Shown: piece by piece, positions 3,407 to 22,745 of the stretch
Layout: the number at the start of each line of letters is the position of its first letter
Position numbering within the stretch: the stretch's first letter is position 1
IMG/VR virus record: IMGVR_UViG_2778261182_000009
Span: 1-22,745 of that record
Reading direction: 5' to 3' (one strand)
DNA: 22,745 nucleotides
DNA from: a virus
Taxonomy: Duplodnaviria > Heunggongvirae > Uroviricota > Caudoviricetes
Notes under the pieces: generated by a model
Databases searched by the model: none
What the model was told of the DNA's origin: nothing
What the model saw: only the letters and a program-made list of their open reading frames with translations
Program-made: the position numbers and the translations under genes

Positions 3407-3409
3407 GTG

Positions 3410-3619
3410 ATGATTTATACACATGAGATGCTTTGCGAAGCGCGTCGGGCGCTGCATGAACTGATGATCGGGCGTGCTGTGGCTTCAGTCAGTAAGAACG
3501 GACGGCAGGTACAGTATTCGCGGGCGACGATTAATGAATTACGGCGATATATTGAGGAAATTGAAAGTGCGCTTGGAATGTCAGGTCGTCGCCGTGGCCC
3601 TGCAGGAGTACGACTGTGA
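3410..3619 (+). CDS. W: Head-tail joining / head completion protein (lambda gpW family)
   Basis: About 69 aa; the translation ...EARRALHELMIGRAVASVSKNGRQVQYSRATINELRRYIEEIE...RRRGPAG matches lambda gpW (...[27 protein letters not shown]...RRRGPAG). GGAGGA lies 6 nt upstream of the ATG at 3410; a GTG at 3407 is an alternative start. Confidence 0.8.
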   Translation: MIYTHEMLCEARRALHELMIGRAVASVSKNGRQVQYSRATINELRRYIEEIESALGMSGRRRGPAGVRL

Positions 3620-5187: not shown

Positions 5188-6793
5188 TTTATCGCATATT
5201 GCCGCCATGGCATTTAATGAACCGCTTTTACTGGAGCCCGCCTATGCGCGGGTTTTCTTTTGCGCGCTGGGTAAAGAGATGGGGGCCGGCAGCCTTGCCG
5301 TTCCTCAGCAGGCTGTTCAGCTTGATGCTGATGGTATGCAACTGGCTGTGACTGACTATATGGCGGGCGGTCAGCGTCCGGCAAAGAGTTACCAGGTGAA
5401 GAATGGCATCGCCATTCTGCCGGTGAGCGGCACGCTGGTGCATAAACTGGGTACCCTGCGCCCTTACTCCGGCATGACAGGCTATGACGGCCTGACTGCC
5501 CGTCTTCAGATGGCGGTGAATGATCCGGATGTGCGCGGCATTTTGCTGGATATCGACAGCCCGGGCGGTCAGGCTGCCGGGGCGTTTGACTGTGCTGACA
5601 TGATTTACCGCCTGCGGGAACAGAAGCCCGTGTGGGCGCTGTGTAATGATATGGCCTGTTCAGCCGCCATGTTGCTGGCGGCAGCCTGTACGCGTCGGCT
5701 GGTCACGCAGACGGCAAAAATTGGTTCGATTGGTGTGATGATGGCGCACACCAGTTACGAGAAACAACTGGCACAGGAAGGGGTGGACATCACGCTGATT
5801 TACTCCGGGCAGCACAAGGTTGACGGCAACAGTATTCAGGCATTGCCGGCAGGTGTGCGTGCAGATTTTCAGCGCCGTATTGATGAGGCCCGCCGGATGT
5901 TTGTCGACAAGGTGGCGCTTTATACGGGGCTGAGTTCAGAGGCGGTGATGAATACCGAGGCTGCCGTTTATGACGGTCAGGCAGGCATTGATGCAGGCCT
6001 GGCTGATCAACTGATTAATGCTGCAGATGCCGTTGAAGTGATGGTTTCTGTACTGAATGACTCTGTTACGAAGGAGAATGCAATGACTGTTAAAAATCTC
6101 ACCGTTGCTGAAGCGGTGGCCCAGGAAAATCAGCGCGTGATGGGGATCCTGAATTGTCAGGAGGCGAAAGGGCGCGAGCAACTGGCGCAAATGCTGGCAG
6201 GTCAGCCTGGAATGACGGTTGAGCAGGCGAAAACGTTGCTTGCAGCTGCGCCGGTTGCCGGTACTGACAGCACGGGTGATCAGATTATGGCGCTGCCGGA
6301 AGCAAAGGGGCGTGAGCAACTGGCACAGATGCTGGCAGGTCAACCGGGGATGACGGTGGAGCAGGCGAAAGCGTTTCTGGCAGCAGCCCCTGCTGCCAGT
6401 GCTGCAGGCACAGGCGATCAGATTATGGCGTTGCCGGAAGCTAAAGGGCGTGAACAACTCGCGCAGGCGCTGGCTGAACAGCCGGGAATGACCGTTGACC
6501 AGGCAAAAACGTTACTGGCGGCGGCACCGGTTGCCGGTTCTGCAAGTGTCGGCGATCAGATTATGGCGCTGCCGGAGGCGAAAGGGCGCAAGCAACTTGC
6601 ACAGGCACTGGCAGAACAACCGGGAATGACGGTGACGCAGGCGAAAACGTTGCTGGCAGCTGCACCGGCGGCATCGCAACCGTCACAGGAAACACTTTTT
6701 GATCGCTTTATGGCACAGCATGCTGCCAGTGCGGTTTCCGGAGGCGGAACTGCCGGGCACGGAGAAGAAGATCTGCTGATGAGTATGCCGTAA
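5177..6793 (+). CDS. C: Head maturation protease / minor capsid protein C (lambda gpC, S49 peptidase family)
   Basis: The N-terminus MRRNLSHIAAMAFNEPLLLEPAYARVFFCAL matches lambda gpC (MTAELRNLPHIASMAFNEPLMLEPAYARVFFCAL). The protease core is conserved (PVSGTL, PYSGMTGY, PVWALCNDMACSAAMLLAAA, TGSIGVMMAH, LIYSGQHKVDGN, TEAAVYDGQ...IDAGLAD). The C-terminal part overlaps the Nu3 scaffold frame as in lambda. Confidence 0.88.
   Translation: MRRNLSHIAAMAFNEPLLLEPAYARVFFCALGKEMGAGSLAVPQQAVQLDADGMQLAVTDYMAGGQRPAKSYQVKNGIAILPVSGTLVHKLGTLRPYSGMTGYDGLTARLQMAVNDPDVRGILLDIDSPGGQAAGAFDCADMIYRLREQKPVWALCNDMACSAAMLLAAACTRRLVTQTAKIGSIGVMMAHTSYEKQLAQEGVDITLIYSGQHKVDGNSIQALPAGVRADFQRRIDEARRMFVDKVALYTGLSSEAVMNTEAAVYDGQAGIDAGLADQLINAADAVEVMVSVLNDSVTKENAMTVKNLTVAEAVAQENQRVMGILNCQEAKGREQLAQMLAGQPGMTVEQAKTLLAAAPVAGTDSTGDQIMALPEAKGREQLAQMLAGQPGMTVEQAKAFLAAAPAASAAGTGDQIMALPEAKGREQLAQALAEQPGMTVDQAKTLLAAAPVAGSASVGDQIMALPEAKGRKQLAQALAEQPGMTVTQAKTLLAAAPAASQPSQETLFDRFMAQHAASAVSGGGTAGHGEEDLLMSMP
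6083..6793 (+). CDS. nu3: Scaffolding protein (lambda Nu3-like), nested in-frame in the 3' part of gene C
   Basis: An in-frame ATG at 6083 is preceded by AAGGAG at 6071-6076. The downstream sequence (MTVKNLTVAEAVAQENQRVMGILNCQEAKGREQLAQMLAGQPGMTV...) resembles lambda Nu3 (…ITAAVAAENSRIMGILNCEEAHGREEQARVLAETPGMTV…). Separate expression is inferred from the lambda precedent. Confidence 0.55.
   Translation: MTVKNLTVAEAVAQENQRVMGILNCQEAKGREQLAQMLAGQPGMTVEQAKTLLAAAPVAGTDSTGDQIMALPEAKGREQLAQMLAGQPGMTVEQAKAFLAAAPAASAAGTGDQIMALPEAKGREQLAQALAEQPGMTVDQAKTLLAAAPVAGSASVGDQIMALPEAKGRKQLAQALAEQPGMTVTQAKTLLAAAPAASQPSQETLFDRFMAQHAASAVSGGGTAGHGEEDLLMSMP
6161..6670 (+). repeat. In-frame tandem repeat, about 4 copies of 138 bp (46 aa), inside the C/Nu3 scaffold coding region
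   Basis: Copies begin at about 6161, 6299, 6437 and 6575. Each encodes EAKGREQLAQ(M/A)LA(G/E)QPGMTV(E/D/T)QAK(T/A)(L/F)LAAAP...GDQIMALP; the last copy diverges after AAAPAAS. Seen directly in the nucleotide and protein sequence. Confidence 0.85.
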
Positions 6794-6830
6794 GCGTTAT
6801 CCGTGATTCAGATAAATCAGGAGACTGAAA

Positions 6831-7166
6831 ATGATTAAAACAACCACAGAAAAGCGCGCGGATGTGCATATTTTTGCCGGAAGCGATCCGGCGCATACCG
6901 CAACAGCCACCAGTGGTATCAGTGCTGCCACGCCTGCACTGACGCCACTGATGCTGGATGACGCCACCGGCAAACTGGTGGCATGGGATGGTCAGAAAGC
7001 CGGAACGGCAGTGGGCGTGCTGGCTCTGGCGCTTGCCGGAACAGAACCCATGCTGACGTACTACAAAAGCGGTACATTTGCCACTGAGTCGCTGGTCTGG
7101 CCTGATTCTGTGGATGCGGTGAAAAAAGCCAACGCATTTGTGGGAAGTGCCATCAGCTACGCCTGA
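6831..7166 (+). CDS. D: Head decoration protein (lambda gpD family)
   Basis: 111 aa; the translation (...[37 protein letters not shown]...[16 protein letters not shown]...) aligns with lambda gpD (...[37 protein letters not shown]...FYKSGTFRYEDVLWPE...). Good RBS CAGGAG upstream. Confidence 0.88.
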   Translation: [111 protein letters not shown]

Positions 7167-7187
7167 TGGTGAAGTGATTGACTGAAA

Positions 7188-7220
7188 AAACGGGTCGCGA
7201 TGCGGCCCGTTTGTGTTTCT
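7188..7220 (+). terminator. Putative intrinsic terminator / attenuator hairpin between D and E
   Basis: AAACGGGTCGC...GCGGCCCGTTT imperfect GC-rich stem followed by GTGTTTCT, directly after the D stop codon. Confidence 0.35.
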
Positions 7221-7235
7221 GAAGGAAAATAAATT

Positions 7236-8264
7236 ATGGGGTTATTTACCACGCGTCAGTTACTCGGGTACACCGAGCAGAAAGTGAAATTTCGTGCGCT
7301 GTTTCTGGAGCTGTTCTTTCGTCGCACGATCACTTTCCATACTCAGGAAGTCATGCTGGATAAAATTACCGGCAAAACACCGGTTGCGGCGTATGTGTCT
7401 CCGGTGGTGTCAGGCAAAGTGCTGCGCAGCCGTGGTGGTGAAACCCGCGTGTTACGTCCCGGTTATGTAAAACCAAAACACCGCTTTGATTATCAGCAGG
7501 CAGTGGAACGTCTTCCGGGGGAAGATCCGGCCCGTCTTAATGACCCGGCCTACCGCCGCCTGCGTATTCTGACTGACAACCTGAAGCAGGAAGAGCAGGC
7601 GATTGTGCAGGTGGAAGAAATGCAGGCGGTCAGTGCCGTTCTGCAGGGGAAGTACACCATGAGCGGGGAACAGTTTGAGACGGTGGAAGTGGATTTTGGG
7701 CGCTCTGCCGCCAATAACATTACGCAGGCTGGCGGACGCGAATGGTCACAGCAGAATGCTGACACCTTTGATCCAACGCACGATCTGGATGCGTACTGCG
7801 ATTTTGCCTCCGGGACCATCAATATCGCGATTATGGATGGCACGGTCTGGCGTATGCTGAATGGCTTTAAGCTTTTCCGTGAAAAACTGGATACCCGTCG
7901 TGGTTCAAAATCGGAACTGGAAACCGCGCTGAAAGATCTGGGCTCCGTGGTCTCTTTTAAGGGGTATTACGGTGATCTGGCCATTGTTGTGGCGAAGACA
8001 ACGTATGTTGACGAAAACGGGGATGAACAGCGTTATCTGCCGGAAGGTACACTGATTCTGGGGAATACTCAGGCGGAAGGCGTCCGTTGTTATGGTGCCA
8101 TTCAGGATAATCAGGCGCTGAGTGAAGGGATCACCTCTGCAATTCGTTATCCAAAACACTGGCTGGAGGTGGGTGATCCTGGTTGCGAATATACCATGAC
8201 ACAGTCTGCGCCGTTGATGGTGTTGCCGGATCCTGACGCGTTTGTGGTGGTTCAGGTGAAATAA
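7236..8264 (+). CDS. E: Major capsid protein (lambda gpE family)
   Basis: 342 aa; extensive alignment to lambda gpE: YVSPVVSGKVLRSRGG, PGYVKPKH, RLPGEDPARLNDPAYRRLRI, EEMQAVSAVLQGKYTMSGE, KLDTRRGSKSELETALKDLG, LGNTQA, YTMTQSAPLMVLPDPDAFVVVQ. Confidence 0.93.
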   Translation: MGLFTTRQLLGYTEQKVKFRALFLELFFRRTITFHTQEVMLDKITGKTPVAAYVSPVVSGKVLRSRGGETRVLRPGYVKPKHRFDYQQAVERLPGEDPARLNDPAYRRLRILTDNLKQEEQAIVQVEEMQAVSAVLQGKYTMSGEQFETVEVDFGRSAANNITQAGGREWSQQNADTFDPTHDLDAYCDFASGTINIAIMDGTVWRMLNGFKLFREKLDTRRGSKSELETALKDLGSVVSFKGYYGDLAIVVAKTTYVDENGDEQRYLPEGTLILGNTQAEGVRCYGAIQDNQALSEGITSAIRYPKHWLEVGDPGCEYTMTQSAPLMVLPDPDAFVVVQVK

Positions 8265-9787: not shown

Positions 9788-10350
9788 TGGAACCATTGAT
9801 GATGGGAACCTGGCATCAGGCAGTGATTGACAGTCTGAAACAAATTCCCTGGGTGGAAGATGCCGATGAGTACCCGGAAAAAGTGACGCAACTGGTGACG
9901 CCTGCCGTGTTTGTGGATGTACCCGGCTGGGACAAGGCTCAGTTTGCCGACGGGCAGACACGGGTCACGCTGAAATGCGATCTGTTTGTGGTGACAGACC
10001 GGGCCGGGAAGACGGAAAACGTGCCAAAACCGCAGATATTTGCCCGCTGTCTGGCAATGGATTTATCTGACTGGATTGATGGAGCCACGTTCGGGCTGGA
10101 TAACGTTGACCCGGCGGTTTTTATCGATGCTGAGGTGGATACCTTCGACCGGCTGCTGGACGACTACATCGTTTTCCGTGTCTCTTTTGAACAGGACATT
10201 CCGGTCGGCGAAGATCCGTTTGCAGTTCCGGCAGGTGCGCCGTTACAGGAAGTCTGGCTGGGTAAAGTACCGGAAACCGGTAAAAAGCATGTGCAGGATT
10301 ATCGTCTTATCTGGAAAGCGGAGGGCACCGGCGATGAGTCTGGCGGATGA
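9784..10350 (+). CDS. Hypothetical acidic protein, possible tail completion or virion morphogenesis protein (occupies the P2 gpR/gpS position)
   Basis: 188 aa ORF with start overlapping the previous stop and end overlapping the gpV start. It lies immediately upstream of the V-W-J-I block, where P2 encodes the tail completion proteins R and S. No direct homology recognised. Confidence 0.45.
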   Translation: MMEPLMMGTWHQAVIDSLKQIPWVEDADEYPEKVTQLVTPAVFVDVPGWDKAQFADGQTRVTLKCDLFVVTDRAGKTENVPKPQIFARCLAMDLSDWIDGATFGLDNVDPAVFIDAEVDTFDRLLDDYIVFRVSFEQDIPVGEDPFAVPAGAPLQEVWLGKVPETGKKHVQDYRLIWKAEGTGDESGG

Positions 10351-10957
10351 AGTGGCAGAGTTACGCCGCAGGGTGGCGGACATGGTCCGTCGCGGCGTGG
10401 TGGAAGAGGTGATCCCGGGTAGCCCGGTGATGGTCCGGGTGGATATCGGAGATGTGCTTTCGCCGCCGTTGCCCTGGATTCAGGTGCAGTCCGGGCGTTA
10501 CATGCAGGTCAGTAATTACCCGGCACCAGGAGATGCGGTCACGGTGATATCGGAGGCAGGTGATCTGCGTAATGGTCGGGTGTATCCGGGGGCCAACATT
10601 GACGCGATTCCGGTACCGGCGGGCAGTGAACACGAGCATGTTATTTTGTTTGATACCGGAACGGAGATCCGTTACGACCGTCAGGCTAATGCCCTGTCCA
10701 TCACGCTGGCTGAAGGCGGTAGCTATAAAATCACCGGCAGGGGAACGCTGGACGGTCCGGTGGAAATCACGGATACCCTGACTGTGCAGGGAAAAACGAA
10801 GATTAATGCCGATACGCAGGTTCTTGGCAATATCGGTGCCTCACAGGAGATCACCGACAAAACCGGTAGCATGAGTAAAATTCGCGAAATTTATAATACT
10901 CATGATCACCCTGGCGACAGCGGGGGAACCACCCGTAAACCTAACCAGAAAATGTAA
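10334..10957 (+). CDS. V: Baseplate spike / assembly protein V (P2 gpV family)
   Basis: ORF 10040..10957; the homologous protein begins at the ATG at 10334 (MSLADEVAELRRRVADMVRRGVVEEV...), resembling the P2 gpV N-terminus. The C-terminal ...HDHPGDSGGTT... matches the P2 gpV ...HKHPGDSGGTT... motif. Confidence 0.82.
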   Translation: MSLADEVAELRRRVADMVRRGVVEEVIPGSPVMVRVDIGDVLSPPLPWIQVQSGRYMQVSNYPAPGDAVTVISEAGDLRNGRVYPGANIDAIPVPAGSEHEHVILFDTGTEIRYDRQANALSITLAEGGSYKITGRGTLDGPVEITDTLTVQGKTKINADTQVLGNIGASQEITDKTGSMSKIREIYNTHDHPGDSGGTTRKPNQKM

Positions 10958-10980
10958 ACGCCGCACCGGCGTTTTTTTTT
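10957..10980 (+). terminator. Putative intrinsic terminator / attenuator between V and W
   Basis: AACGCCG, loop CAC, CGGCGTT, followed by a run of nine T, immediately after the V stop codon. Confidence 0.5.
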
Positions 10981-10992
10981 CGGAAAAATTTC

Positions 10993-11349
10993 ATGATTGG
11001 TATTGATTCAGCCACCGGCAGATATCTGCACGGTAACGAACATTTGCGTCAGTCCGTCACCGATATTTTATCAACACCGGTCGGCAGCCGGGTACTTCTC
11101 AGGGAATACGGCAGCAGGTTGTTCAGTCTGCTTGATAACCCACAGGATGATTTCACGCGGGTGAGGATTGTCCGTGAAACGGCAACCGCCCTTGAGCGCT
11201 GGGAACCCCGCCTGACCCTTCGGCGGGTGGAGGTGACGTGGACCGGAGAAGGAAGCGCCTGGCTGACGCTTGTCGGGGTGAACAACGAGACACAGGAAAC
11301 GATTCGACTCGAGGAGATAAAAATTGGCAACGTCTCAGGCAATCATTGA
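10993..11349 (+). CDS. W: Baseplate assembly protein W (P2 gpW family)
   Basis: 118 aa; ...SVTDILSTPVGSRVLLREYGSRLFSLLDNPQDD...ALERWEPRLTL... aligns with P2 gpW (...SIGDILRTPVGSRVMRRDYGSLLASMIDQPQ...LKWEPRVTL...). Confidence 0.82.
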   Translation: MIGIDSATGRYLHGNEHLRQSVTDILSTPVGSRVLLREYGSRLFSLLDNPQDDFTRVRIVRETATALERWEPRLTLRRVEVTWTGEGSAWLTLVGVNNETQETIRLEEIKIGNVSGNH

Positions 11350-12238
11350 TCTGTCCGCGATACCGGTACCGGATGCGGTGGAGGTGCCGGACACCGCTGT
11401 GCTGGTCACTCAGATAGTGGCGAAATATCAGGAGCTGGATACGTTGTTTTCGGCCATGGTGGAATCCGATCCGGCGTATAAATGGGCAGAGGCACTGGCT
11501 TTTCGTGTGGCGCTGATGCGCCAGCAGGTCAATGATGCTGTCCGGGGTGTACTGCTTGCCAGTGCCCGCAGGAACGATCTGGATCAGATTGGTGCGAATT
11601 TTCAGGTGCAACGTCTGGTCATTACCCCGGCAGATGACAGCACCATTCCGCCCACGCCTGCGGTGTATGAAGATGATGATGCTTTTCGCGAACGTATCCA
11701 GTTGTCATGGGCACGACTCAGCACCGCAGGCGCGAAAAACGCATATCACTATTTTGCACAGAGTGCCGATCCTGATGTGCTGGATGTGAAAGCCTACGGG
11801 CCGGAAACGCATTCACAGGAAGGGCGTGTTTTTCTTTATGTGTTATCGCGAACCGGAAACGGTACGGCATCACAACCCCTGCTGGATAAGGTGGCAGCGT
11901 CAGTCAATGATGATGAAATTCGACCTCTGACGGATTTTGTCAGCGTCCGTGCGGCAGAAATTATTCCCTACGATGTGGTGGCGGATATCCATATTCCCTA
12001 CGGGCTTGATGGTGAACTGGTGATGAAAAATGCCCGTCAGGCGCTGCAGACCTACACTGACAGTGTTCACCGGATTGGTTCTGTGGCGTCCTGCTCCGGT
12101 ATGGACGGAGCCCTGCATCAGACGGGGGTGATCACGGTGGCACTGAAATCGCCGGTCAGTGATATTGTTCCGGTGATGGGACAGGCTCCATGGTGTCGCT
12201 CAGTCACACTGAACAAGGTGGAGACAACCGATGAATGA
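11324..12238 (+). CDS. J: Baseplate assembly protein J (P2 gpJ family)
   Basis: 304 aa; probable TTG start at 11324 with GAGGAG 7 nt upstream. Conserved blocks against P2 gpJ: IIDLSAIPVPD, NDLDQIGANF, RLVITPADDSTIPPTPAV, RERIQ, YHYFAQSADPDV, VRPLTDFVSV. Confidence 0.85.
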   Translation: MATSQAIIDLSAIPVPDAVEVPDTAVLVTQIVAKYQELDTLFSAMVESDPAYKWAEALAFRVALMRQQVNDAVRGVLLASARRNDLDQIGANFQVQRLVITPADDSTIPPTPAVYEDDDAFRERIQLSWARLSTAGAKNAYHYFAQSADPDVLDVKAYGPETHSQEGRVFLYVLSRTGNGTASQPLLDKVAASVNDDEIRPLTDFVSVRAAEIIPYDVVADIHIPYGLDGELVMKNARQALQTYTDSVHRIGSVASCSGMDGALHQTGVITVALKSPVSDIVPVMGQAPWCRSVTLNKVETTDE

Positions 12239-14816
12239 CAAAATCAGAAGCATACTTCCTGTCAGCGCCAGCCGGGCAGAGCGGGTGGTGGACAGTACCG
12301 CCGGTGATATGCTGGCGGAAATCGCGGTCTGTCTGATCCGCTATGTCAAAAATCCCGATTTATGTCCGACGGAATTGCTGCCATGGCTGGCCTGGGAAAT
12401 GTCAGTGGATACCTGGAATGAGCACTGGACGGAGGCGGAAAAAAAGGCGGCGATAAAACGTGCTGCCTATATCCATCGTCACAGGGGAACAAAAGCCGCA
12501 CTGAATGAATCCCTGGCAGACAGTCCGTTCCGGTCGCAGATTGTGGAGTGGTATGAGCAGACGCCACCGGGAGATCCCTATACCTTCCGGCTGAATGTGG
12601 AGCAGAAGGATCTGCCGGTTCTGATGAGCGACCACCAGGATTTGAAACATGCCGTACTACGGGCCAAAAATCTGCGCAGCTGGTTCAGTATTCACGTTTA
12701 TGGAAACTGCCGGGGGAACGGATATGGTTATGGCTATGTGACGGCGACGGAAAAACTGAAAAATAAAATCATGCCATCACAGATCCTGTTGTCGCCGGAC
12801 AGTGTGCAACTGGCTCCCGGAGAAACGGTATCCATAAAAGTGACGATATTGCCACTGATCGCTGAAGATCGCACCTTCACTGTTCACCTGGCAGATGAAC
12901 GTGTGGCTGATATACAGGTTGATGGTGATGTAATCACCCTGACCGGCAGACAGTTCGGGTCCACCACGGTGACTGTGATGACGGTTAATGGTGTGACCGC
13001 CACGTTACCCGTAAGCATTGTGTCAGTCACCCGCGTTTTGATCCGGGTGGACAGTGTCAGCAGGCCATTATTTATGGTGGATCCCAGAGAAACAGGATTC
13101 ACCATTGATTATGGTGACGGAACAGATTCCCGGGACTACACCATTTCAGGGAACGATGTTATGACTACCCGGACACTGGCACCGGGGACGGAACTGATGC
13201 TGACGGTGAAAAACTGTGAAAGCATTACGTTTTATAAAACATATACGTCATCAAACCCGTTGCTGGAGATCATTCAGGTCTGTAGTCTGCGCACAAGTAT
13301 GTATCAGTTTGCATACGGGCACCGTGCGCTGAGAAAAATTCATGACGGAGCATTTGATTACCTGGTAAATGTGAATGATTTTGGCAGGGCGTTTATGGGG
13401 TGTTCTGCTCTGGAAACAGTCCCTGAACATTTGTTTGCCGCCTGTCAGCGGGTGCTCTATTTTTCGTATCTTTTCTGTGACTGTTCATCGTTGTCTGCAA
13501 TCCCGGATGGCCTTTTTGCCGGTGCCGGAGAAGTGGTTGATTTTCGTTATGTATTCAGTGGTTGCAGGAAACTTGCCTCCCTGCCTGAAGGATTGTTCGC
13601 CGACGCGGTTAATGCCACTGATTTTTCGTATGCATTCAATAACTGCAGTATGCTGACAGCACTACCCCCGCGTTTGTTTGCGGGAGCCGTATCAGCAACA
13701 AATTTCCACTATGTTTTTAATGGTTGTCGGGCGCTGACTTCCCTGCCGGATGATTTATTCCACGGACTTCATCAGGCCAGTATTTTCTCCCGGGCTTTTG
13801 CACTGACAGGTCTGACGCACCTGCCGGATAACCTGTTTGCTGAAACCCGTGGAACAAATTTTGACAGCGTTTTTTACTCTGCGGAAAAACTGACACGGGT
13901 TCCCCGCACGTTGTTCCATCTGCCGCTTCATGACGGGAATGTCAGAATTATACTGGATGGTGCTTTTGAGTTTTGTAGTGGGTTACTTACAATTGAGCCG
14001 GGTGTGTTTGATGACATTACGACGAAGATACGTTCAGCAAAGCGTGTATTTCGTCGCTGTTATGCACTGAAAGCGATACCGTCCCGTCTGTTTGCTGGTG
14101 CGGTGAACTGTGAATCTTTTAACACATCATTTGAAAGTTGTCTGGCGCTGACCTCCACTGGTGATGAAGTTTTCTCGGGGAGCGGGATCCAGGATGCACA
14201 ATTAATTTTTGCTTATTGCAGTAACCTGACAACGACAGGGGAAAGGTTGTTTGCCGACTGTCGTTCCCTGACGTCATACAACAATTGTTTTTCATCCTGT
14301 TCGTCACTAAGTCAGATCGGTGCAGGTATGTTGTCCGGCTGCGTTTCCCTGAGAACGGCTTATCATCTGTTGACCGATTCCGTGGGGAGTAACCGGGTGA
14401 CAACCGTGCCAGGGGATTTGTTCCGGGGATGTGTTTCCCTGAACAACATCAGCAGTCTGTTTGATTCCTGTGGTCAGTTAACATCAATTCCGGATGAACT
14501 TTTTGCTGATTGTCAGACGATACAGCATGCGGGGGGCGCATTTTCCCGGTGCGTGCGGTTACAACGTGTCCCGGCGGATATTGTTACGCCATCGACGACT
14601 GCATCCAGCCTGGCTTCCATGTTCCGCAACTGTGAACAGCTTGAAATGGATATCAACGATATATTTACCCGGAATTTCCCGTCGGGCTGTAATCTGCTGA
14701 CTATTTTTACCGGCTGTAAAAATGTGACCGGCAGTAAATCTGAATTTCTTGCAAAATTTCCGTCGCCCTCTGATGCAGAGAATGCCTTTTACGGGTGCGA
14801 CCGGCTGACAGACTGA
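12231..14816 (+). CDS. I: Baseplate protein I homolog (P2 gpI-like N-terminal ~175 aa) fused to a ~680 aa extension: predicted Ig-like domain plus a Cys-rich LRR-like repeat array
   Basis: One uninterrupted 861 aa ORF. Residues about 40-175 align with P2 gpI (NPDLCPTELLPWLAWEMSVDTWNEHWTEAEKKAAIKRAAYIHRHRGTKAAL...PPGDPYTFRLNV vs P2 NPDTCPANLLPWLAWAFSVDRWDEKWPEATKRAVIRDAYFIHCHKGTIGAI...PPGTFRLDI). Downstream come an Ig-like segment (SPDSVQLAPGETVSIKVTILP...TTVTVMTVNGVTATLPVSIVS) and 15-20 repeats of about 24 aa of the form F..C..L..(I/L)P..LFA......F...F. P2 gpI is only about 176 aa. Confidence 0.8.
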   Translation: MNDKIRSILPVSASRAERVVDSTAGDMLAEIAVCLIRYVKNPDLCPTELLPWLAWEMSVDTWNEHWTEAEKKAAIKRAAYIHRHRGTKAALNESLADSPFRSQIVEWYEQTPPGDPYTFRLNVEQKDLPVLMSDHQDLKHAVLRAKNLRSWFSIHVYGNCRGNGYGYGYVTATEKLKNKIMPSQILLSPDSVQLAPGETVSIKVTILPLIAEDRTFTVHLADERVADIQVDGDVITLTGRQFGSTTVTVMTVNGVTATLPVSIVSVTRVLIRVDSVSRPLFMVDPRETGFTIDYGDGTDSRDYTISGNDVMTTRTLAPGTELMLTVKNCESITFYKTYTSSNPLLEIIQVCSLRTSMYQFAYGHRALRKIHDGAFDYLVNVNDFGRAFMGCSALETVPEHLFAACQRVLYFSYLFCDCSSLSAIPDGLFAGAGEVVDFRYVFSGCRKLASLPEGLFADAVNATDFSYAFNNCSMLTALPPRLFAGAVSATNFHYVFNGCRALTSLPDDLFHGLHQASIFSRAFALTGLTHLPDNLFAETRGTNFDSVFYSAEKLTRVPRTLFHLPLHDGNVRIILDGAFEFCSGLLTIEPGVFDDITTKIRSAKRVFRRCYALKAIPSRLFAGAVNCESFNTSFESCLALTSTGDEVFSGSGIQDAQLIFAYCSNLTTTGERLFADCRSLTSYNNCFSSCSSLSQIGAGMLSGCVSLRTAYHLLTDSVGSNRVTTVPGDLFRGCVSLNNISSLFDSCGQLTSIPDELFADCQTIQHAGGAFSRCVRLQRVPADIVTPSTTASSLASMFRNCEQLEMDINDIFTRNFPSGCNLLTIFTGCKNVTGSKSEFLAKFPSPSDAENAFYGCDRLTD

Positions 14817-14826
14817 GGTTTTACAG

Positions 14827-16251
14827 ATGCATGGATTAACACTGACGACAGCAGGCGCGGCAGAGATTGAGGCTGCCTACCAGTCAGGACAGGTGGTGAC
14901 CATCACGCACGTGCTCACCGGTGATGGTGGCGGTCAGAAACTGCCTGAAACACCGGATGAAATGGCTGCAATGACAGGGCTGTATGGTCAGTTTGGTCAG
15001 GAGCCACTTTCTGCCGGTGAATCCGGAGAAGGATTTATCCGTGGTGAAATTGTTATTGACTGCAAAAAATACCCCGGAAAAACGCTGCGTGAACTGGGGA
15101 TGGTGAGTGCCAGCGGCACGCTGATAGCGTACGGGCGTTATCCGGATACGTATTTACCGGCACAGACAGATTCCGTCATCAAAGAGGTTATTCTGACGCT
15201 GGTACTGGGGCTGACGCATGCGCAGAATGTGACGCTGGAGCTTGACCCGTCCAGGGTGATTATCACGCAGGAGGCAGGAGATAAACGCTATCTGCGCATC
15301 AGCGAGAATCTTGCCGATGTGGAAGATAAAGATGAAGCAGTTGATAACCTCGGGTTAAAACCGACGGTGGACAAGGCAAAAAATGCCGTTCAGCGCGATG
15401 GTGACACCATGACCGGGGAGCTGAAAATCAGGAGAGTGAATGCGCTGCGAATTTTCGACGAAGCTTTTGGCCTGATTTTTCGTCGTTCGGAAGAGTGCCT
15501 GCACCTTATCCCTACCAGTGAAGGTCAGGGTGAAAATGGCGATATTGGCCCCCTGCGTCCGTTCACTATTAATCTGCGGACCGGTGAGATATCCATGTCG
15601 CACAAAGTGTCTGTTGGTTTTGGCTCTCAGGTGCAGGGCGCACTGGGTATCGGTGTTCAGAATGCGCTGGGCGGTAACTCAATTGCTTTCGGGGATAACG
15701 ATACAGGTATAAAACAAAACGGCGACGGCATTCTGGATGTTTATGCGAATGGACAGCATGTATTTCGTTTCCAGAATGGTGTGGCGACAGCGTTAAAAAA
15801 TATTCAGGCCGGAAATGCTAAAAAATTCACGTTATCCAGCGCCAACAACTCAACGAAAAACGCAACGTTTAATTTATGGGGCAATTCGTCCCGTCCTGTA
15901 GTTGCAGAGCTTGGTGATGATTCCGGCTGGCATTTTTACAGCCAGAGAAATACGGATAACAGTATAACGTTCGCTGTAAACGGACAGATGGTCCCGTCAA
16001 ATTATGGAAATTTCGATGCCCGTTACCAGACCAAATCAGGGGGCGTGCAGAATTTTCAGTACACCAGTGAGGTGTTTTACAACCCTGGTGGGAATGAGCG
16101 CAGCTGGACGTTTCGGGCACCTTCTGGTTGTGTTTTGTCAGGCATTAATGTTCAGGACACTGGCAGTAACTCTGCAGATAATATCGGTGGCGTGTATTAC
16201 AAACAGGCTCAGATTTATATTGATGGCGCATGGCGCTCAGTATCAGGTTAA
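14827..16251 (+). CDS. H: Tail fiber protein (P2 gpH family)
   Basis: 474 aa; the N-terminus ...LTTAGAAEIEAAY...TGDGGG is fiber-like, and a long block NALGGNSIAFGDNDTGIKQNGDGILDVYANGQHVFRFQNGVATALKNIQAGNAKKFTLSSANNSTKNATFNLWGNSSRPVVAELGDDSGWHFYSQRNTDNSITFAVNGQMVPSNYGNFDARY matches the P2 gpH family. Followed by a fiber assembly gene. Confidence 0.85.
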   Translation: MHGLTLTTAGAAEIEAAYQSGQVVTITHVLTGDGGGQKLPETPDEMAAMTGLYGQFGQEPLSAGESGEGFIRGEIVIDCKKYPGKTLRELGMVSASGTLIAYGRYPDTYLPAQTDSVIKEVILTLVLGLTHAQNVTLELDPSRVIITQEAGDKRYLRISENLADVEDKDEAVDNLGLKPTVDKAKNAVQRDGDTMTGELKIRRVNALRIFDEAFGLIFRRSEECLHLIPTSEGQGENGDIGPLRPFTINLRTGEISMSHKVSVGFGSQVQGALGIGVQNALGGNSIAFGDNDTGIKQNGDGILDVYANGQHVFRFQNGVATALKNIQAGNAKKFTLSSANNSTKNATFNLWGNSSRPVVAELGDDSGWHFYSQRNTDNSITFAVNGQMVPSNYGNFDARYQTKSGGVQNFQYTSEVFYNPGGNERSWTFRAPSGCVLSGINVQDTGSNSADNIGGVYYKQAQIYIDGAWRSVSG

Positions 16252-16264
16252 TTAAGGAAAAATA

Positions 16265-16792
16265 ATGGAACTCGTAAACGTTACGCGTTACTACCCTGAA
16301 GACATGCCTTATGGTGAAGGCATTCAGTATTTCCGTAGTGAAGACGGGCAGGATTTTTATGAATCACTGGATAAATTCACGAAGAAATACAAGCTGTGCA
16401 CGCATCCTGAAACCGGCATTATTTATTCCATGGCGGAAGATGTATCCCGTCTTTATCCCGTTGGTTTTACCATTGTGGAAGTGGATGAACTACCGGAAGG
16501 ATTTTGTATTGAAGCCCGCTGGTATTATAAAGACGGTGAAGTACTGCCGGTCCCTGTAGACTACCGGCAGCAGGCAGAGTCGGAGCGTGCACGTCTTACT
16601 GCGATTGCCGAACGGGAAATATCCGATAAGAAGACGGATTTACTTCTGGGAATCATCAGTGATGAGGAAAAAGAAAAGCTGACAGCCTGGCGTGTTTACG
16701 CAAAGGAACTGCAGGTGATGGATTTCAGCGCCATTGTGGATAAGAGCGCTTATGACAATATTGCCTGGCCTGAATCACCACAAAATATCTGA
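16265..16792 (+). CDS. G: Tail fiber assembly protein (P2 gpG family)
   Basis: 175 aa, immediately downstream of the fiber gene, with a suitable RBS (AAGGAAAAATA-ATG). The ...RQQAESERARLTAIAEREI... segment resembles the conserved region of tail fiber assembly chaperones. Confidence 0.75.
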   Translation: MELVNVTRYYPEDMPYGEGIQYFRSEDGQDFYESLDKFTKKYKLCTHPETGIIYSMAEDVSRLYPVGFTIVEVDELPEGFCIEARWYYKDGEVLPVPVDYRQQAESERARLTAIAEREISDKKTDLLLGIISDEEKEKLTAWRVYAKELQVMDFSAIVDKSAYDNIAWPESPQNI

Positions 16793-16809
16793 AAAAAGTG
16801 AATCAACAG

Positions 16810-16833
16810 ACCGCCTTTAAGGGCGGTTTTTTT
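16810..16833 (+). terminator. Rho-independent terminator after the tail fiber assembly gene
   Basis: ACCGCC (16810-16815), loop TTTAAG, GGCGGT (16822-16827), followed by TTTTTTT; located between G and the sheath gene. Confidence 0.6.
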
Positions 16834-16846
16834 ATGGGAGAAATGT

Positions 16847-18322
16847 ATGTCCGGACTACATGGTGTTGAAACCATTGAACTGACAACAGGCACGGTCGCT
16901 GTGCAGACCATCTCCACGGCAGTGATTGGCCTGGTGGGGACTGCGCCGGATGCTTCCGGTGGTGTGTGTGCTTCCGGCACTGCCGGTTCGTGGCTGCTGG
17001 GAACGGCGCTGGATTTCACGGCGAAACAGGAAGGCCGGGCCGGCAATAAGATTTCTGTGGTTGCCGTCGCGGCCACAGAACAAAGCGCGCAGACCACGGC
17101 CTTACTGGAAGGTACAACCCTGACGATAAAGCTGGGGACGGATGAACACAGCCAGGTTAACGCCACGGTGGACCGTGTGACTGAAGTGGTGAATGCACTG
17201 GGTGATTCACCTGTGACGGCGGCGGTCAGTACCCTGAATGCAGGGGGAGCTGAAAATAATGTGGTGTCGCCGTTCAACCTGACGCTATCCGGCGGGGAAG
17301 ATGAGGCGTTCCCGGTTAATACACCGGTTGTGGTGGCAGGAGCCATTACTCAGGCAGGAAAACTGGGGGCTGCCGGGACACTGTATCCGGCCCTGCGAGA
17401 TATTTTTGACCAGACCGGTGCACTGGTGATTGTGGTGCGTGCGGAAAGTAAACCGAAAGCGAAAGAGGCTGAACAACGCGCGGCGGTGATTAAGGCCATG
17501 GAAGCGCTGACAGAGAGTAAAGGTGTGACGGGCTATCAGCCGCGCATTCTCATTGCCACGGGTTACAGTGAGGATGATGGTGTGGCAAAGGCGCTGGAAA
17601 CGTATGCCGCGAAGCTGCGGGCCGTGGCCTATATCGACTCTCCCTCAATGGCAACGCCGCAGGATGTGGTTCAGCGGCGCGCATCCTTTGGCGGACGTGT
17701 GGAACTGCTGCGCCCGCGCGTGTCAGTAACGGATGACAGCGGGCAGACGGTATTTCGTCCGTATTCGGCGCGCGCTGCCGGGCTGCGTGCCCGTATTGAT
17801 TACGAAAAAGGGTGGTGGTGGTCCAAATCAAACCAGGACGTGATGAATATCACCGGTCTGGAGCAGGTGGATACGTTTATTCTCGGGGAGCAGAACTGCA
17901 CGGCAAACCTGCTGAACATGGAAAATATCTCCACCATTATTCGTCACGACGGCTTTAAGCACTGGGGGAACCGTCTGTGTTCATCCCACAGTCAGTGGCG
18001 TTTTGAGCCGGTACGCCGCACTGCAGATGTGATTGAGGACAGCATCCAGGAGGCCATGCTGCCTTATGTCGATCGCCCGCTTGATAGGGATGTGGCGGAC
18101 GACATTCTTGGCAGTATTAATGCCTATATGCGTCAGCTTAAAAATCTGGGCGCGATCCACGGTGGCAGTGCCTGGCTGAATGATGAACTGAACACAGCAG
18201 AAACCCTGGCCGCCGGGCAGTTGTATATCGATTATGACTTTGGACCGAAGTCACCACTGGAGCGCCTGACACTGCGGGCGATGATTAACAATAAACTGGC
18301 GCTGGAGGAACTGACGGTATGA
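16847..18322 (+). CDS. FI: Contractile tail sheath protein (P2 gpFI family) with an N-proximal insertion
   Basis: 491 aa; the N-terminus MSGLHGVETIELTTGTVAVQTISTAVIGLVGTAPDA matches P2 FI ([37 protein letters not shown]). The C-terminal half is well conserved (GLRARIDYEKGW, IRHDGFKHWGNR, AETLAAGQLYIDYDFGPKSPLERLTLR). An extra segment of about 110 aa has no P2 counterpart. Confidence 0.9.
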   Translation: MSGLHGVETIELTTGTVAVQTISTAVIGLVGTAPDASGGVCASGTAGSWLLGTALDFTAKQEGRAGNKISVVAVAATEQSAQTTALLEGTTLTIKLGTDEHSQVNATVDRVTEVVNALGDSPVTAAVSTLNAGGAENNVVSPFNLTLSGGEDEAFPVNTPVVVAGAITQAGKLGAAGTLYPALRDIFDQTGALVIVVRAESKPKAKEAEQRAAVIKAMEALTESKGVTGYQPRILIATGYSEDDGVAKALETYAAKLRAVAYIDSPSMATPQDVVQRRASFGGRVELLRPRVSVTDDSGQTVFRPYSARAAGLRARIDYEKGWWWSKSNQDVMNITGLEQVDTFILGEQNCTANLLNMENISTIIRHDGFKHWGNRLCSSHSQWRFEPVRRTADVIEDSIQEAMLPYVDRPLDRDVADDILGSINAYMRQLKNLGAIHGGSAWLNDELNTAETLAAGQLYIDYDFGPKSPLERLTLRAMINNKLALEELTV

Positions 18323-18837
18323 TTACGGGTGAAAAAAAACTGTTGCGCGCATGGGCGTTATTTCTTCCTGGTGGGATCCGTCTTCAGGGGGCACATGAAT
18401 ACACGCCGCCTGCCATTAATATCACGACAGTGGATATCAAAACCGGCGCAATGGATGCACCGGTGGCAGTGGATGATGGTATGGAGGCGCTGACCTGCTC
18501 GTTTAAGATTTATGGCTACGATGTTGCCATGCTGACACTGCTTGGATTACAGGCGGGGCTTTATTCGCCGGAGATTGTTGTCCGCCAGGCTTACAGGGTG
18601 GGGAATGCGACCAGCGGACAGGTGGAAACCCTGCAGGGGATGATCTCCAGTATCACGCCGGATGCGCGCCCGGCAACGTCACAGGCGGAGGCTTCGGTGA
18701 CGGTGGAGATGTCGCTGAGTTATTACCGTCAGGCTGTAGATGGTCTGGAAACCATCTGCATTATTCCGGAGGAATTTGTTCGTCGTATTAACGGCGTTAA
18801 TGTTCTGTCGGATCTGAAAAAAATCATCCGGGTTTAA
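18319..18837 (+). CDS. FII: Tail tube protein (P2 gpFII position and size)
   Basis: 172 aa ORF directly downstream of and overlapping the sheath stop (GTATGA), with GGAGGA upstream. Assigned by synteny and the FII-like size; direct sequence similarity is weak by eye. Confidence 0.65.
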   Translation: MITGEKKLLRAWALFLPGGIRLQGAHEYTPPAINITTVDIKTGAMDAPVAVDDGMEALTCSFKIYGYDVAMLTLLGLQAGLYSPEIVVRQAYRVGNATSGQVETLQGMISSITPDARPATSQAEASVTVEMSLSYYRQAVDGLETICIIPEEFVRRINGVNVLSDLKKIIRV

Positions 18838-18856
18838 TCCGGGTATCCGGTTATTC

Positions 18857-18884
18857 AGGCGGCTCAGGCCGCCTTTTCTTTTTT
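18857..18884 (+). terminator. Rho-independent terminator after the tail tube gene
   Basis: AGGCGGC (18857-18863), loop TCAG, GCCGCCT (18868-18874), followed by TTTCTTTTTT. Confidence 0.65.
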
Positions 18885-18897
18885 AAAGGAGATGCTT

Positions 18898-19200
18898 ATG
18901 TCGGAAAAAAACAGTGTTCCTGCCAGCAGCGTGGAAATTGTGTTATCCGTGCCGTATGTCACCGCATCAGGGCAGACGATCACGCACATCACCATGCGTG
19001 CACCCACCGTCCGCGATCGTCTGTTGCATCGACGGAGTACCAAACCGGAAGCAGAGGCTGACCTGGATATGATTGCCGGTCTTTGCGGGATGGATGCGGC
19101 GGACATGATGAACATGGAAGCGTGTGATTACCTGGCCCTGGAGCGGCAGTTTAATGTTTTTTTGCTGCCGCCGGTCCGGCGGAAGAAGACAGCATCCTGA
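18898..19200 (+). CDS. E: Tail assembly chaperone (P2 gpE-like)
   Basis: ORF 18892..19200; AGGAG at 18887-18891 favours the ATG at 18898. Small protein between the tube and tape-measure genes; its 3' end contains a T7G slippery run. Confidence 0.7.
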   Translation: MSEKNSVPASSVEIVLSVPYVTASGQTITHITMRAPTVRDRLLHRRSTKPEAEADLDMIAGLCGMDAADMMNMEACDYLALERQFNVFLLPPVRRKKTAS

Positions 19201-19337
19201 CAGCGATACGGCGTGCTGGTGCCTGGTTCGGGTGGTCTCCCGGAGATGTGATGGCGCTGCCGTATACGGATTTTGTGTCAATGATGCTGGCAGAGTCGGA
19301 AGAGAGGAAACGACGTTATGGCAACGGTTGGCGATAA
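18898..19337 (+). CDS. Tail assembly chaperone frameshift product (P2 E+E'-like), made by a programmed -1 ribosomal frameshift
   Basis: The zero frame reads ...NVFLLPPVRRKKTAS and stops at 19198-19200. The -1 frame opens right at the slippery site (a stop at 19152-19154 sits just upstream in that frame) and runs stop-free from 19158 to a TAA at 19335-19337 (FFAAAGPAEEDSILTAIRRAGAWFGWSPGDVMALPYTDFVSMMLAESEERKRRYGNGWR), overlapping the tape-measure start as in P2. Confidence 0.55.
19157..19164 (+). other. Slippery sequence TTTTTTTG for the -1 programmed frameshift (E to E')
   Basis: T-run at 19157-19163 followed by G; the zero-frame codons are GTT TTT TTG. This is the same heptamer class used for the chaperone frameshift in P2-like tail operons. 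Confidence 0.55.
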
Positions 19338-20970
19338 CCTTAAAGCGAATATCAGGATCGGCGGCACGATAGATCCGTCGTGGAAAAAATCGGTTGATGG
19401 ACTGAAGCACGGATTATCAGGGGCAACACAGGAGGTGGCTCGCCTGACACGCCAGCAGGATGTACTGAAACGAAAAATTCAGGCTGGTGCACTGGCTGGA
19501 CAGGATATTACTGAACTGCGAAAGCAGTATGAAAAGCTGGGCAAAAAAATTCATGATGCCACCGGAGAGCAGGACAAATTTAACCGTAAGCTGGCTCGTG
19601 CTGAACGTCTGGAACGCTGGAAAGGGCGGGCCGGGACGGTCCTTAAAACCGGTTTTGGGCTTTCTGTTGGTTCGGGGTTGATGCTGGCAGCGGGCACTAC
19701 CGCTGTGCTTAACCGGAATACGGAAACGGCAGAGCGGGCAGGGATAGCCCGCAGTTATGGTGTGGATTATGAAACCTATGCGGCATGGGATTCACTTGCC
19801 CGACTGATGGGGCTGAATGGTGAAAACATCGGTGATCTGTTTGAGGAGTACCGGAACAAGGTTTTTGACGATGATAATGGTGCCACGGATAAAGGGGCCA
19901 TTCAGGAGGTGTTTGGTGCGCTGGGGCTGAAAGCCGGGGTGATGGCCGGAAAAAGCAACCAGGAGCAGGTCGAATTTTTATTTGATCGCTTACTGCAGGT
20001 AGAGAATGAACAGGTGGCAGCCGGGATGGCAGATGCGTTGTTTGGTGGTGAGGCCAATAAAATTCTGACCTGGATGCGTCTGTCAGGAAAAACTTACCGG
20101 GAGCTTATCAGTGAGCAGAAACGCTATAACCTGGTGACAAAGGCAGGGGCAGATGGCGCAGTTCAGGGGCATATGGCGCTGTCAAATCTCAGTAATGTTC
20201 TGAGTTCGTCCATTGATGAAATCAGCGGGCAACTGGGTAAGGAGCTGGCACCACATATTCAACAGGTGACGGATGACCTTGCGGCCTGGTTTAAGTATGG
20301 TGGACTGGAAAAAATCCGGGCATTTATCCGTGATGATGCCCTGCCGGCGCTGATCGACATGGCAGCATGGATGTGGAAATTCGGAAAAGTTCTGGCTGGA
20401 ATCACACAAAAAGCCATTGAGTGGGGGTTAGCGGATGATCCACGAGAGGACCGGCGAGAGGTGCTGGAATATCTGGCAAAAATGGGGTCGCCGGAGCTGG
20501 CGAGAGCGGTGGCGCAGAAAAACGGTCAGGGTGAATGGTTTGATGAACTTATCAGGCAAAATCCGGACCTGACGAAACAGGTTGTACAGGCCTATAAAGA
20601 CACCCGCGGTTATTTCCCCTGGAATCATGACGATAAAAAGTTTGATGCATTTCTCGACCCTTTGCTGGGACCGAAGGAAGAACCTGATTTTAAGGCGATA
20701 AAAGAGAAATCCCGCACCTACATTGACGGACTTCCTGCGGCAGGTCAGGGACAGGAAAATCCTGATCGCCTTTCAGCCCTCCAGTATACACCCGGCAGTA
20801 TCAGCAAGGTGGAAGTAAAACCCACATATCAGATACGGGCCGAATTTAACATCACCCAGAAATCTGGCGAGGATGCCGGACAACTGGCAGACAGGGTGAC
20901 GAAAAATCTGGGGGATATTCATTTTGGTCAGCGTTCCCGTATGACTGATGGTTATGAATCCTGGGGGTGA
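19318..20970 (+). CDS. T: Tail tape measure protein (P2 gpT position)
   Basis: 550 aa, predicted largely alpha-helical (coiled-coil-like, with charged heptad-like runs), and a Gly/hydrophobic segment (GFGLSVGSGLMLAAGTTAVL). It lies after the E/E' chaperone genes and before U, as for P2 gpT. Confidence 0.82.
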   Translation: MATVGDNLKANIRIGGTIDPSWKKSVDGLKHGLSGATQEVARLTRQQDVLKRKIQAGALAGQDITELRKQYEKLGKKIHDATGEQDKFNRKLARAERLERWKGRAGTVLKTGFGLSVGSGLMLAAGTTAVLNRNTETAERAGIARSYGVDYETYAAWDSLARLMGLNGENIGDLFEEYRNKVFDDDNGATDKGAIQEVFGALGLKAGVMAGKSNQEQVEFLFDRLLQVENEQVAAGMADALFGGEANKILTWMRLSGKTYRELISEQKRYNLVTKAGADGAVQGHMALSNLSNVLSSSIDEISGQLGKELAPHIQQVTDDLAAWFKYGGLEKIRAFIRDDALPALIDMAAWMWKFGKVLAGITQKAIEWGLADDPREDRREVLEYLAKMGSPELARAVAQKNGQGEWFDELIRQNPDLTKQVVQAYKDTRGYFPWNHDDKKFDAFLDPLLGPKEEPDFKAIKEKSRTYIDGLPAAGQGQENPDRLSALQYTPGSISKVEVKPTYQIRAEFNITQKSGEDAGQLADRVTKNLGDIHFGQRSRMTDGYESWG

Positions 20971-21461
20971 AGATGGTGGATTTACTGGGCTGGGGTGTAA
21001 ACCGGCTTGAGCGTGAAGCATGGGATGCAGTGGGTTCATTAACGGAGGTGGCTTCCCGCGTCATGCTGTCGTTTGGTGAGTTTGAATTCAGTATCGATAC
21101 GGCAGCGTATAACGCCATGAAGCGCACCATGGAATGGCGGTGGGATGAACAGCAGCTTATCGGAAAAAACGACCTGCTGCAGTATACCGGCAAGGGAGCC
21201 AGAGCAATAACCCTTGAAGGTATGGTGCATGCAGGATTTCGTGACGGTGTGGGAATGGATGCCCTTGATACACTGGTTCAGATGGTGGATGACAATCCGG
21301 CACCGTACCTTCTGGTCTCAAGCACAGGTGATGTGATGGGGTATTTTGTTGCAACCTCCTATTCAGATAACACCACGTCCTTTCTTCCCGGCGGTGCGCC
21401 GAAGAACAAAACGTTCACACTGGAGCTGAAATACTATGGCGAAAAACTGGCGGACCACTGA
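20967..21461 (+). CDS. U: Tail protein U (P2 gpU family)
   Basis: 164 aa ORF with start overlapping the tape-measure stop (GTGA), positioned between T and X/D as in P2-like tail operons. Confidence 0.7.
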   Translation: MKMVDLLGWGVNRLEREAWDAVGSLTEVASRVMLSFGEFEFSIDTAAYNAMKRTMEWRWDEQQLIGKNDLLQYTGKGARAITLEGMVHAGFRDGVGMDALDTLVQMVDDNPAPYLLVSSTGDVMGYFVATSYSDNTTSFLPGGAPKNKTFTLELKYYGEKLADH

Positions 21462-21654
21462 CGGCGATATGCTGGATGATATCTGTCAGAGACACTATGG
21501 CAGCGCCGGAGTTAACCAGTCACTGGCGGCGGTGCTGGAGGCCAATCCGGGACTGGCTGACCTTGGTCCGGTATATCCGGCAGGTGTGGAAATCGTGTTG
21601 CCGGACTGGGTGTATGAACCGGAGGAAAAGGAGACGTTTCAGTTATGGGACTGA
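21436..21654 (+). CDS. X: Tail protein X (P2 gpX family, LysM-like)
   Basis: 72 aa; GDMLDDICQRHYGSAGVNQSLAAVLEANPGLADLGPVYPAGVEIVLPD aligns with P2 gpX (GDTLDAICVRYYGRTEGVVETVLAANPGLAELGAVLPHGTAVELPD). Confidence 0.8.
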   Translation: MAKNWRTTDGDMLDDICQRHYGSAGVNQSLAAVLEANPGLADLGPVYPAGVEIVLPDWVYEPEEKETFQLWD

Positions 21655-22745
21655 ATGAATATCTGCCTGATTTCAGCCTGACAGCAGAGGGTGAGGATAT
21701 CACGAAGGCCATAAAGCGGGGGCTGGCTGAACTGCGTTATACCGATAATGGTGCTGCCACAAAGCGCTCCGATGAACTGATGATAACCCTGTTCAGTGAG
21801 ACGATGGCGCTGCCGCCAAAAGGCGCGGTATTAACGCTGGGACTGGGATTCAACGGAAACCTGGTAAATAAAGGCAGTTTTACCGTCTGCCAGGTGGCAA
21901 GCGGTGGTCCTCCCCGTCGGATCACCATTTATGCCACCGCAGCCCCCATGAATGCGTCAAAACATGGCGCAGACGTGACCGCACTGAAAACCCGTGCGTT
22001 CAGCGATGTCACGCTGGGTGACCTGGTGAAAACGATCGCCACTGAAAATAATCTGGTGGCACGGGTCTCACCGGCGCTGGCAAAAATTCGTATCCCGTGG
22101 GTGATGCAGTCATCTGAATCGGATGCGTCCCTGCTTTCCCGGCTTGCAGGGATGTACGGTGCCACCAGTAAACCGACGAACGGTTACTGGTTATTTCTGG
22201 AGTATGGCGCATCACAGAGTACAGGCGGCAGGGATGCGCCTGTAATGACCATCACGCCGGGCATGGTGTCAGACTGGGATTACCGGGAGGGGGTACGGCA
22301 GGGCGCATCCGGAGGCGGAAAAGGAACAACAAAAAAAGGGAAAGTGGGTGTCAGATATTTTGACCCTCGCGACGGGAGAACGCGCGAATTTAAAGTGGAC
22401 GTGGAGTCCACAGACAAGCGACATCCATTCACTCAGCCGGATCAGGACACAGCAAAACACTGCGCAGACTCTAAGGTTAAACGTGTGCAGAAAGCCGGAC
22501 GCCAGATGACGATAACGTTGCCCTGCAGGCCCGCATTGTTGAAAGCGGGGGCGGAAATGCGTTTTATCACGCAGGGATTTGGGGTACGCGAGGATCATAA
22601 CTGGCAGGCTGAGTCGGTGGAGTTTTCACTGGCACCGGGGCAGGGATTTACGCTGAATCTGTCGCTGGCCACCGATATCTCGGCGAAAGGGAAAGCATCA
22701 GGGAAGAAGAAAGCGGATAAAAAAGGCGTGAATTATTACGGGTAA
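21645..22745 (+). CDS. D: Tail protein D / late control gene D protein (P2 gpD family)
   Basis: 366 aa, with the stop codon at the window end. Matches to P2 gpD include GAVLTLGLGFNG, KGSFTV, LGDLVKTIATENNL, SESDASLLSRLAGMYGA, and a basic Lys-rich segment; final gene of the P2-like tail cluster. Confidence 0.85.
   Translation: MGLNEYLPDFSLTAEGEDITKAIKRGLAELRYTDNGAATKRSDELMITLFSETMALPPKGAVLTLGLGFNGNLVNKGSFTVCQVASGGPPRRITIYATAAPMNASKHGADVTALKTRAFSDVTLGDLVKTIATENNLVARVSPALAKIRIPWVMQSSESDASLLSRLAGMYGATSKPTNGYWLFLEYGASQSTGGRDAPVMTITPGMVSDWDYREGVRQGASGGGKGTTKKGKVGVRYFDPRDGRTREFKVDVESTDKRHPFTQPDQDTAKHCADSKVKRVQKAGRQMTITLPCRPALLKAGAEMRFITQGFGVREDHNWQAESVEFSLAPGQGFTLNLSLATDISAKGKASGKKKADKKGVNYYG

Follow-up and report, generated by a model that had tools for sequence, protein, structure and literature searches.

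The window analysed in this study was the whole 22,745-nucleotide stretch of the IMG/VR virus record IMGVR_UViG_2778261182_000009, and it held the late genes of a temperate phage of E. coli. Positions 1105..8264 carried a head module of the phage-21/lambda type, with 77% nucleotide identity to phage 21 and lambda-type phages. The head genes encoded the small and large terminase, a W-like joining protein, portal B, an S49 protease/scaffold, a decoration protein, the major capsid protein (E), and FI. The tail was not accompanied by Q, P, O, N, M, and L, which serve head formation and packaging in P2. Because the head was of the phage-21 type, the phage did not belong to Peduoviridae, the P2-like taxon. 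The window was a mosaic in which a P2-type contractile tail (10000..22745) adjoined a module for packaging and head formation of the phage-21/lambda type.

The tail module also included, from about 10 kb, genes for W/gp25, J, I, a collar fibre, and a fibre-assembly protein. A Pfam match was obtained for each member of the P2-type tail set (W/gp25, J, I, FI, FII, E, U, X, and D). The baseplate V gene was named in a RefSeq relative ("baseplate assembly protein V") and had no Pfam match in the window. The tail genes were arranged as V, W, J, and I; fibre and chaperone; and FI, FII, E, E', T, U, X, and D. This order was that of P2, save that X lay beside D. The gpX gene was located between gpU and gpD, as in phages Chris1, yong2, and Valp1, while in P2 the X gene has L and the holin gene Y as its neighbours. 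The positions of the features are listed in Table 1.

Table 1. Tail features of the window, with the evidence for each.
Feature	Position	Strand	Size and evidence
gpI baseplate gene	12231..14816	+	861 aa; Tail_P2_I (residues 9-149), Big_2 Ig-like domain, BspA-type leucine-rich-repeat region
Tail sheath (gpFI-like)	16847..18322	+	491 aa; Pfam Phage_sheath_1 and Phage_sheath_1C
Tail tube (gpFII-like)	18319..18837	+	172 aa; Pfam Phage_tube, E 4e-22; 22% identical to P2 FII
Tail assembly chaperone gpE	18892..19200	+	102 aa from the first ATG; Pfam Phage_TAC_7, E 7e-12
Slippery heptamer T_TTT_TTG, predicted -1 frameshift giving gpE+E'	19158..19164	+	Read in the E frame
E' extension, -1 frame	19164..19337	+	Three-frame translation; ends 20 nt inside the tape-measure gene
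Tail tape measure protein (proposed)	19318..20970	+	550 aa; phrog_3654 match, helical model, gene position
gpU-like tail protein	20967..21461	+	Pfam Phage_P2_GpU, E 8e-28; 32% identical to P2 gpU
gpX-like tail protein	21436..21654	+	Pfam Phage_tail_X, E 3e-19
gpD-like baseplate hub protein	21645..22745	+	366 aa; Pfam Phage_GPD, E 7e-6, below the gathering score

The feature under study was the 550-aa ORF, which was read directly in the window as 1653 nt with an ATG start, a length far beyond chance. An in-frame stop was present about 30 nt upstream of the ATG, and GAGAGGAAA, a purine-rich Shine-Dalgarno-like stretch, lay 5' of it; the start was therefore well defined. The stop overlapped the start of gpU in the tetranucleotide GTGA (20967-20970). 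A mis-called start was considered and rejected on the basis of the upstream in-frame stop and the overlap of the ATG by E'.

The gpE homologue in one RefSeq relative (L001) was annotated as "phage tail assembly protein", and the RefSeq relatives of gpE started at the second Met, at 18898. The phase of the heptamer within gpE was that required for slippage by -1, and P2 has an identical T_TTT_TTG heptamer at its annotated -1 site. The E' frame, which was open to 19337, overlapped the ATG of the 550-aa ORF, and P2 E+E' likewise overlaps T. The E' extension showed a weak local similarity to the tail of P2 E' (F.W.P ... RR.GN). The Pfam search of the modelled E+E' fusion gave no separate domain and no match for the E' extension. 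In RefSeq, the E' extension was entered as a free-standing 45-aa "hypothetical protein" (L001, 22354..22491).

In long-tailed phages generally, the tape-measure gene follows a frameshifted chaperone pair. In the annotations, T comes after E/E' in P2 and gp42 comes after gp41 in Mu, in keeping with this arrangement. In the window, the order was sheath, tube, E, E' (-1 frameshift), the 550-aa ORF, U, X, and D, so that the ORF occupied the tape-measure slot directly after the gpE/E' pair and directly before gpU, gpX, and gpD. In the PHROG profile search, the protein matched phrog_3654 end to end (residues 3-549 against profile positions 2-576 of 577, E 8.4e-210), a profile labelled "unknown function". 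Weak matches (E 7e-9 to 6e-4) were also obtained to phrog_8125, 9570, 2854, 8462, 17727, and 13674, all of which are labelled "tail length tape measure protein".

The three-dimensional structure of the 550-aa protein was modelled by AlphaFold2 on 34 diverse homologues. In the model, DSSP assigned 20 helices and the helical part reached to about residue 470; the pLDDT was above 90 at residues 130-290 and 380-450. A hydrophobic Gly-rich segment at residues 105-132, GFGLSVGSGLMLAAGTTAVL, formed the Kyte-Doolittle peak. A Foldseek search of the model against BFVD gave 37 matches at E ≤ 1e-3, and most of the named ones were "Tail tape measure". These matches were weak (E 6e-8 and weaker, TM-scores ~0.3), and such TM-scores are as would be expected for flexible helical models. 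A 99% identical protein of the same length (P0003) carried the source label "MAG TPA: tail tape measure". No Pfam or NCBIfam family matched the 550-aa protein (NCBIfam at E ≤ 0.01), and PDB sequence and fold searches with it returned generic coiled-coil noise and no related solved structure. This lack of a Pfam, NCBIfam, or PDB relative accounts for its RefSeq name, "hypothetical protein".

The absence of a curated Pfam or NCBIfam family, together with a PHROG of its own labelled "unknown function", would also suit another tail or baseplate component, with the true length ruler encoded elsewhere. This explanation was considered very improbable. The ORF fills a conserved slot after a frameshifted chaperone pair, and the repeated weak tape-measure PHROG matches, the named tape-measure folds, and the helical model all point to a tape measure. 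A ruler gene elsewhere in the tail module was considered and rejected, and no other candidate ORF was found there; of the other large ORFs of the module, one encoded the collar fibre (474 aa), one the sheath, and one the 861-aa gpI with its Ig and LRR domains. The tape-measure role of the 550-aa ORF is supported by position, fold class, and weak profile matches. The assignment of the gene as a tape measure in the sequence-only reading agreed with the slot between E/E' and U/X/D, with the helical model, and with the weak PHROG and BFVD tape-measure matches. The "hypothetical protein" labels of E' and the tape measure are annotation gaps, not unknowns.

The earlier reading had also given the length of the protein as 550 aa, which the reading of the ORF confirmed. 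It had put P2 gpT at roughly 800 aa; this was correct, since gpT is encoded at 19850..22297 of AF063097 and has 815 aa. The tape measure of the window was shorter than P2 gpT, as had been claimed, by about one third. The length gap between 550 and 815 aa was the sole point in favour of regarding the gene as a truncated or frameshifted remnant of a gpT-sized tape measure, produced by sequencing error or prophage decay. Against this stood the lengths of the homologues. The closest database proteins were exactly 550 aa in 120 of 120 cases, from many independent assemblies, and relatives at 58% and 50% identity (P0121, 540 aa; P0122, 560 aa) aligned over residues 1-549. The 34 family representatives were 501-619 aa long, with a median of 554, and the tape measures of the phage relatives had 607 aa in Chris1, 591 aa in yong2, 596 aa in Valp1, and 546 aa in vB_EcoM-705R4. 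The near-complete coverage of phrog_3654, a start bounded by the upstream stop and overlapped by E', and a stop overlapping the start of gpU also spoke for an intact gene, and there was no homology to gpT from which the 550-aa protein could derive. A remnant of a longer gene was therefore considered extremely improbable. The truncation by sequencing error that the earlier reading had named as a way to refute its claim was rejected, since every close homologue has 550 aa and lengths in the family run from 501 to 619 aa.

The P2 gpT protein, a tail length determinator, and the window tape measure occupy the same slot in the string V W J I H G, FI FII E E' T U D. Both follow a chaperone with a T_TTT_TTG -1 frameshift, and the ruler function is presumed to be shared. 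The two proteins differ in sequence as well as in length. The best BLASTP match between them had an E of 0.30 over 33 residues. TIGR01760 (tape_meas_TP901) scored 357 bits in gpT and had no match in the window protein, and gpT belongs to phrog_28, whereas the window tape measure belongs to phrog_3654. Judged by these comparisons, the window tape measure is no shortened gpT and belongs to a different sequence family, whose members are all short.

The nearest phage records were Chris1 and yong2 (tape measure 39-42% identical), followed by Valp1 (35%). The tape measures of these three phages (591-607 aa) were 35-42% identical to that of the window over the N-terminal 370-450 residues, and Chris1, the one of the three that was scanned, also matched phrog_3654. 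For the neighbouring sheath, tube, E, U, X, and D proteins, the identity between the window and Chris1, yong2, and Valp1 was 28-63%. The W, J, and I baseplate genes of Chris1 and yong2 are placed after D, a Mu-like order, and not ahead of the sheath. The head modules of all three phages differ from that of the window, and Valp1 is a telomere phage.

For its last 100-180 residues, the tape measure could not be aligned to Chris1, yong2, and Valp1, and the alignments ended at residues 369-453. The C-terminus (20680..20970, residues ~455-550) was conserved in the closer representatives. The last ~80 residues were predicted to be mostly non-helical, with low confidence in the AlphaFold2 model. This non-helical end may make no contribution to tail length, and the C-terminal part of the protein may be a hub-specific module.

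Over residues 146-483, the sheath shared 37% identity with P2 FI; its identity was 61-63% to Chris1 and yong2 and 46% to Valp1. Its best solved relative was the R-pyocin sheath PA0622. Neither P2 FI (396 aa) nor PA0622 has a counterpart of residues 37-145 of the sheath, an insertion of ~108 residues; the sheaths of Chris1, yong2, and Valp1 (487-489 aa) aligned end to end with the window sheath. The insertion is probably an extra surface domain. The gpD protein was 39% identical to P2 gpD over ~200 aa and 48-50% identical to gpD of Chris1 and yong2. The sequence-only reading had placed these genes in "a distinct tail lineage carrying P2-like genes". This view agreed with the identities to P2 of the sheath (37%), tube (22%), gpU (32%), and gpD (39%), and with a tape measure without similarity to gpT. 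The proteins beside the tape measure are true, though remote, homologues of those of P2.

The usual size of gpI is ~180-200 aa. The gpI of the Sx181-0-1 relative had 196 aa, versus 861 aa in the window. Among 5426 complete E. coli genomes, the full-length long gpI was found in one, that of strain 401651 (93.8% nucleotide identity), and most gpI relatives shared the first 525 nt only. The long extension may provide the baseplate with an additional module for receptor binding.

The tail module (16847-22745) was present in 78 of the 5426 complete E. coli genomes (~1.4%) at 92-96% nucleotide identity. Sx181-0-1 carried it in a lambdoid prophage with RusA, a Q antiterminator, tRNAs, a holin, and GH108 lysis genes, and this prophage was inserted beside prfC; strain A36 (NZ_CP028739) was another carrier besides Sx181-0-1 (NZ_CP078137). 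A megablast search of the tape-measure gene against 50,697 phage records gave no match, and tblastn against the phage records found tape-measure relatives at ≤42% identity. No cultured phage in the searched collection shared the tail module at the DNA level.

The ruler principle was established for lambda and T4 (PMC3185693), and tail length changes linearly with truncations and insertions in the tape measure (PMC13585406). With reference to Abuladze et al. 1994, a review counts T4 as one of the phages with an identified ruler protein (PMC3185693). The relation between residues and tail length was calibrated with one family member (Valp1) and two unrelated myoviruses (P2 and T4). Valp1 is a myovirus with a contractile tail of 90 × 20 nm (PMC11054321), and its tape measure of 596 aa corresponds to 1.51 Å per residue. 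It was the sole calibrator found within the tape-measure family of the window, the vB_EcoM-569R10 group being in-silico prophages. The P2 tail of 135 nm (PMC7552001) corresponds to 1.66 Å per residue for 815 aa, and the T4 tail of ~1000 Å (~100 nm) with a gp29 of 590 aa (PMC3185693) corresponds to 1.69 Å per residue. At 1.5-1.7 Å per residue, 550 aa gives a predicted tail of ~83-93 nm. The tail of this phage would be 0.62-0.69 of the length of that of P2, and roughly as long as those of Valp1 and T4.

In the mechanism proposed by analogy with lambda gpH and T4 gp29, the gpE and gpE+E' chaperones would hold the largely helical tape measure. The tape measure would be anchored in the baseplate hub, and the tube, then the sheath, would polymerise along it. 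Polymerisation would stop at the far end of the tape measure, and for this reason the tape measure's length would set that of the tail.

A true tape measure could also be combined with a tail not noticeably shorter than that of P2, through a more extended conformation or another length factor. The ratio of length to residues does vary, from 1.51 to 1.69 Å among Valp1, P2, and T4, and it has been argued that T4 gp29 cannot be fully helical if it spans the tail (PMC3185693). However, a tail of 135 nm from 550 aa needs 2.45 Å per residue, well outside the observed range, and Valp1, of the same family and with a tape measure 46 residues longer, has a tail of 90 nm. A tail of P2 length was considered unlikely on these grounds, and the shorter tail was preferred.

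The comparison was extended to two other rulers of contractile tails. T4 gp29 resembles the window tape measure in being a contractile-tail ruler of 590 aa with a tail of ~100 nm; no sequence relationship between the two was detected, and the setting of baseplate and tail differs greatly. Mu gp42 serves as the ruler in a temperate enterobacterial phage with a contractile tail and likewise follows a frameshifted chaperone. It differs in its length of 690 aa and in the annotated -2 frameshift, and it showed no similarity to the window protein in the BLASTP panel.

The results suggested that 19318..20970 is very probably the complete, functional tape measure of a temperate E. coli phage with a phage-21/lambda-like head and a distantly P2-like contractile tail. 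Under this reading, the protein belongs to the phrog_3654 family, which is distinct from gpT, and its length would set a tail of ~83-93 nm. A wider proposal, for which the chances appear evenly balanced, is that the phage represents a lineage of myoviruses with a lambdoid head and a P2-like tail that is common in E. coli. The lineage would carry a compact, un-annotated phrog_3654 ruler whose variable C-terminal 100-180 residues are perhaps matched to the hub.

A short tape measure in a mosaic lambdoid/P2-like prophage is ordinary phage biology; the finding has little importance beyond annotation and resolves no open question. The tape measure and the E' extension, entered as "hypothetical protein" in RefSeq across dozens of E. 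coli genomes, can now be named. A contractile tail of 83-93 nm is a testable prediction for a lineage without a close relative among the searched phage records. If the wider proposal is true, the phrog_3654 family merits a curated model and would mark a uniformly short-tailed clade, with tails of ~85-95 nm. "P2-like" tail modules can hold rulers from unrelated sequence families.
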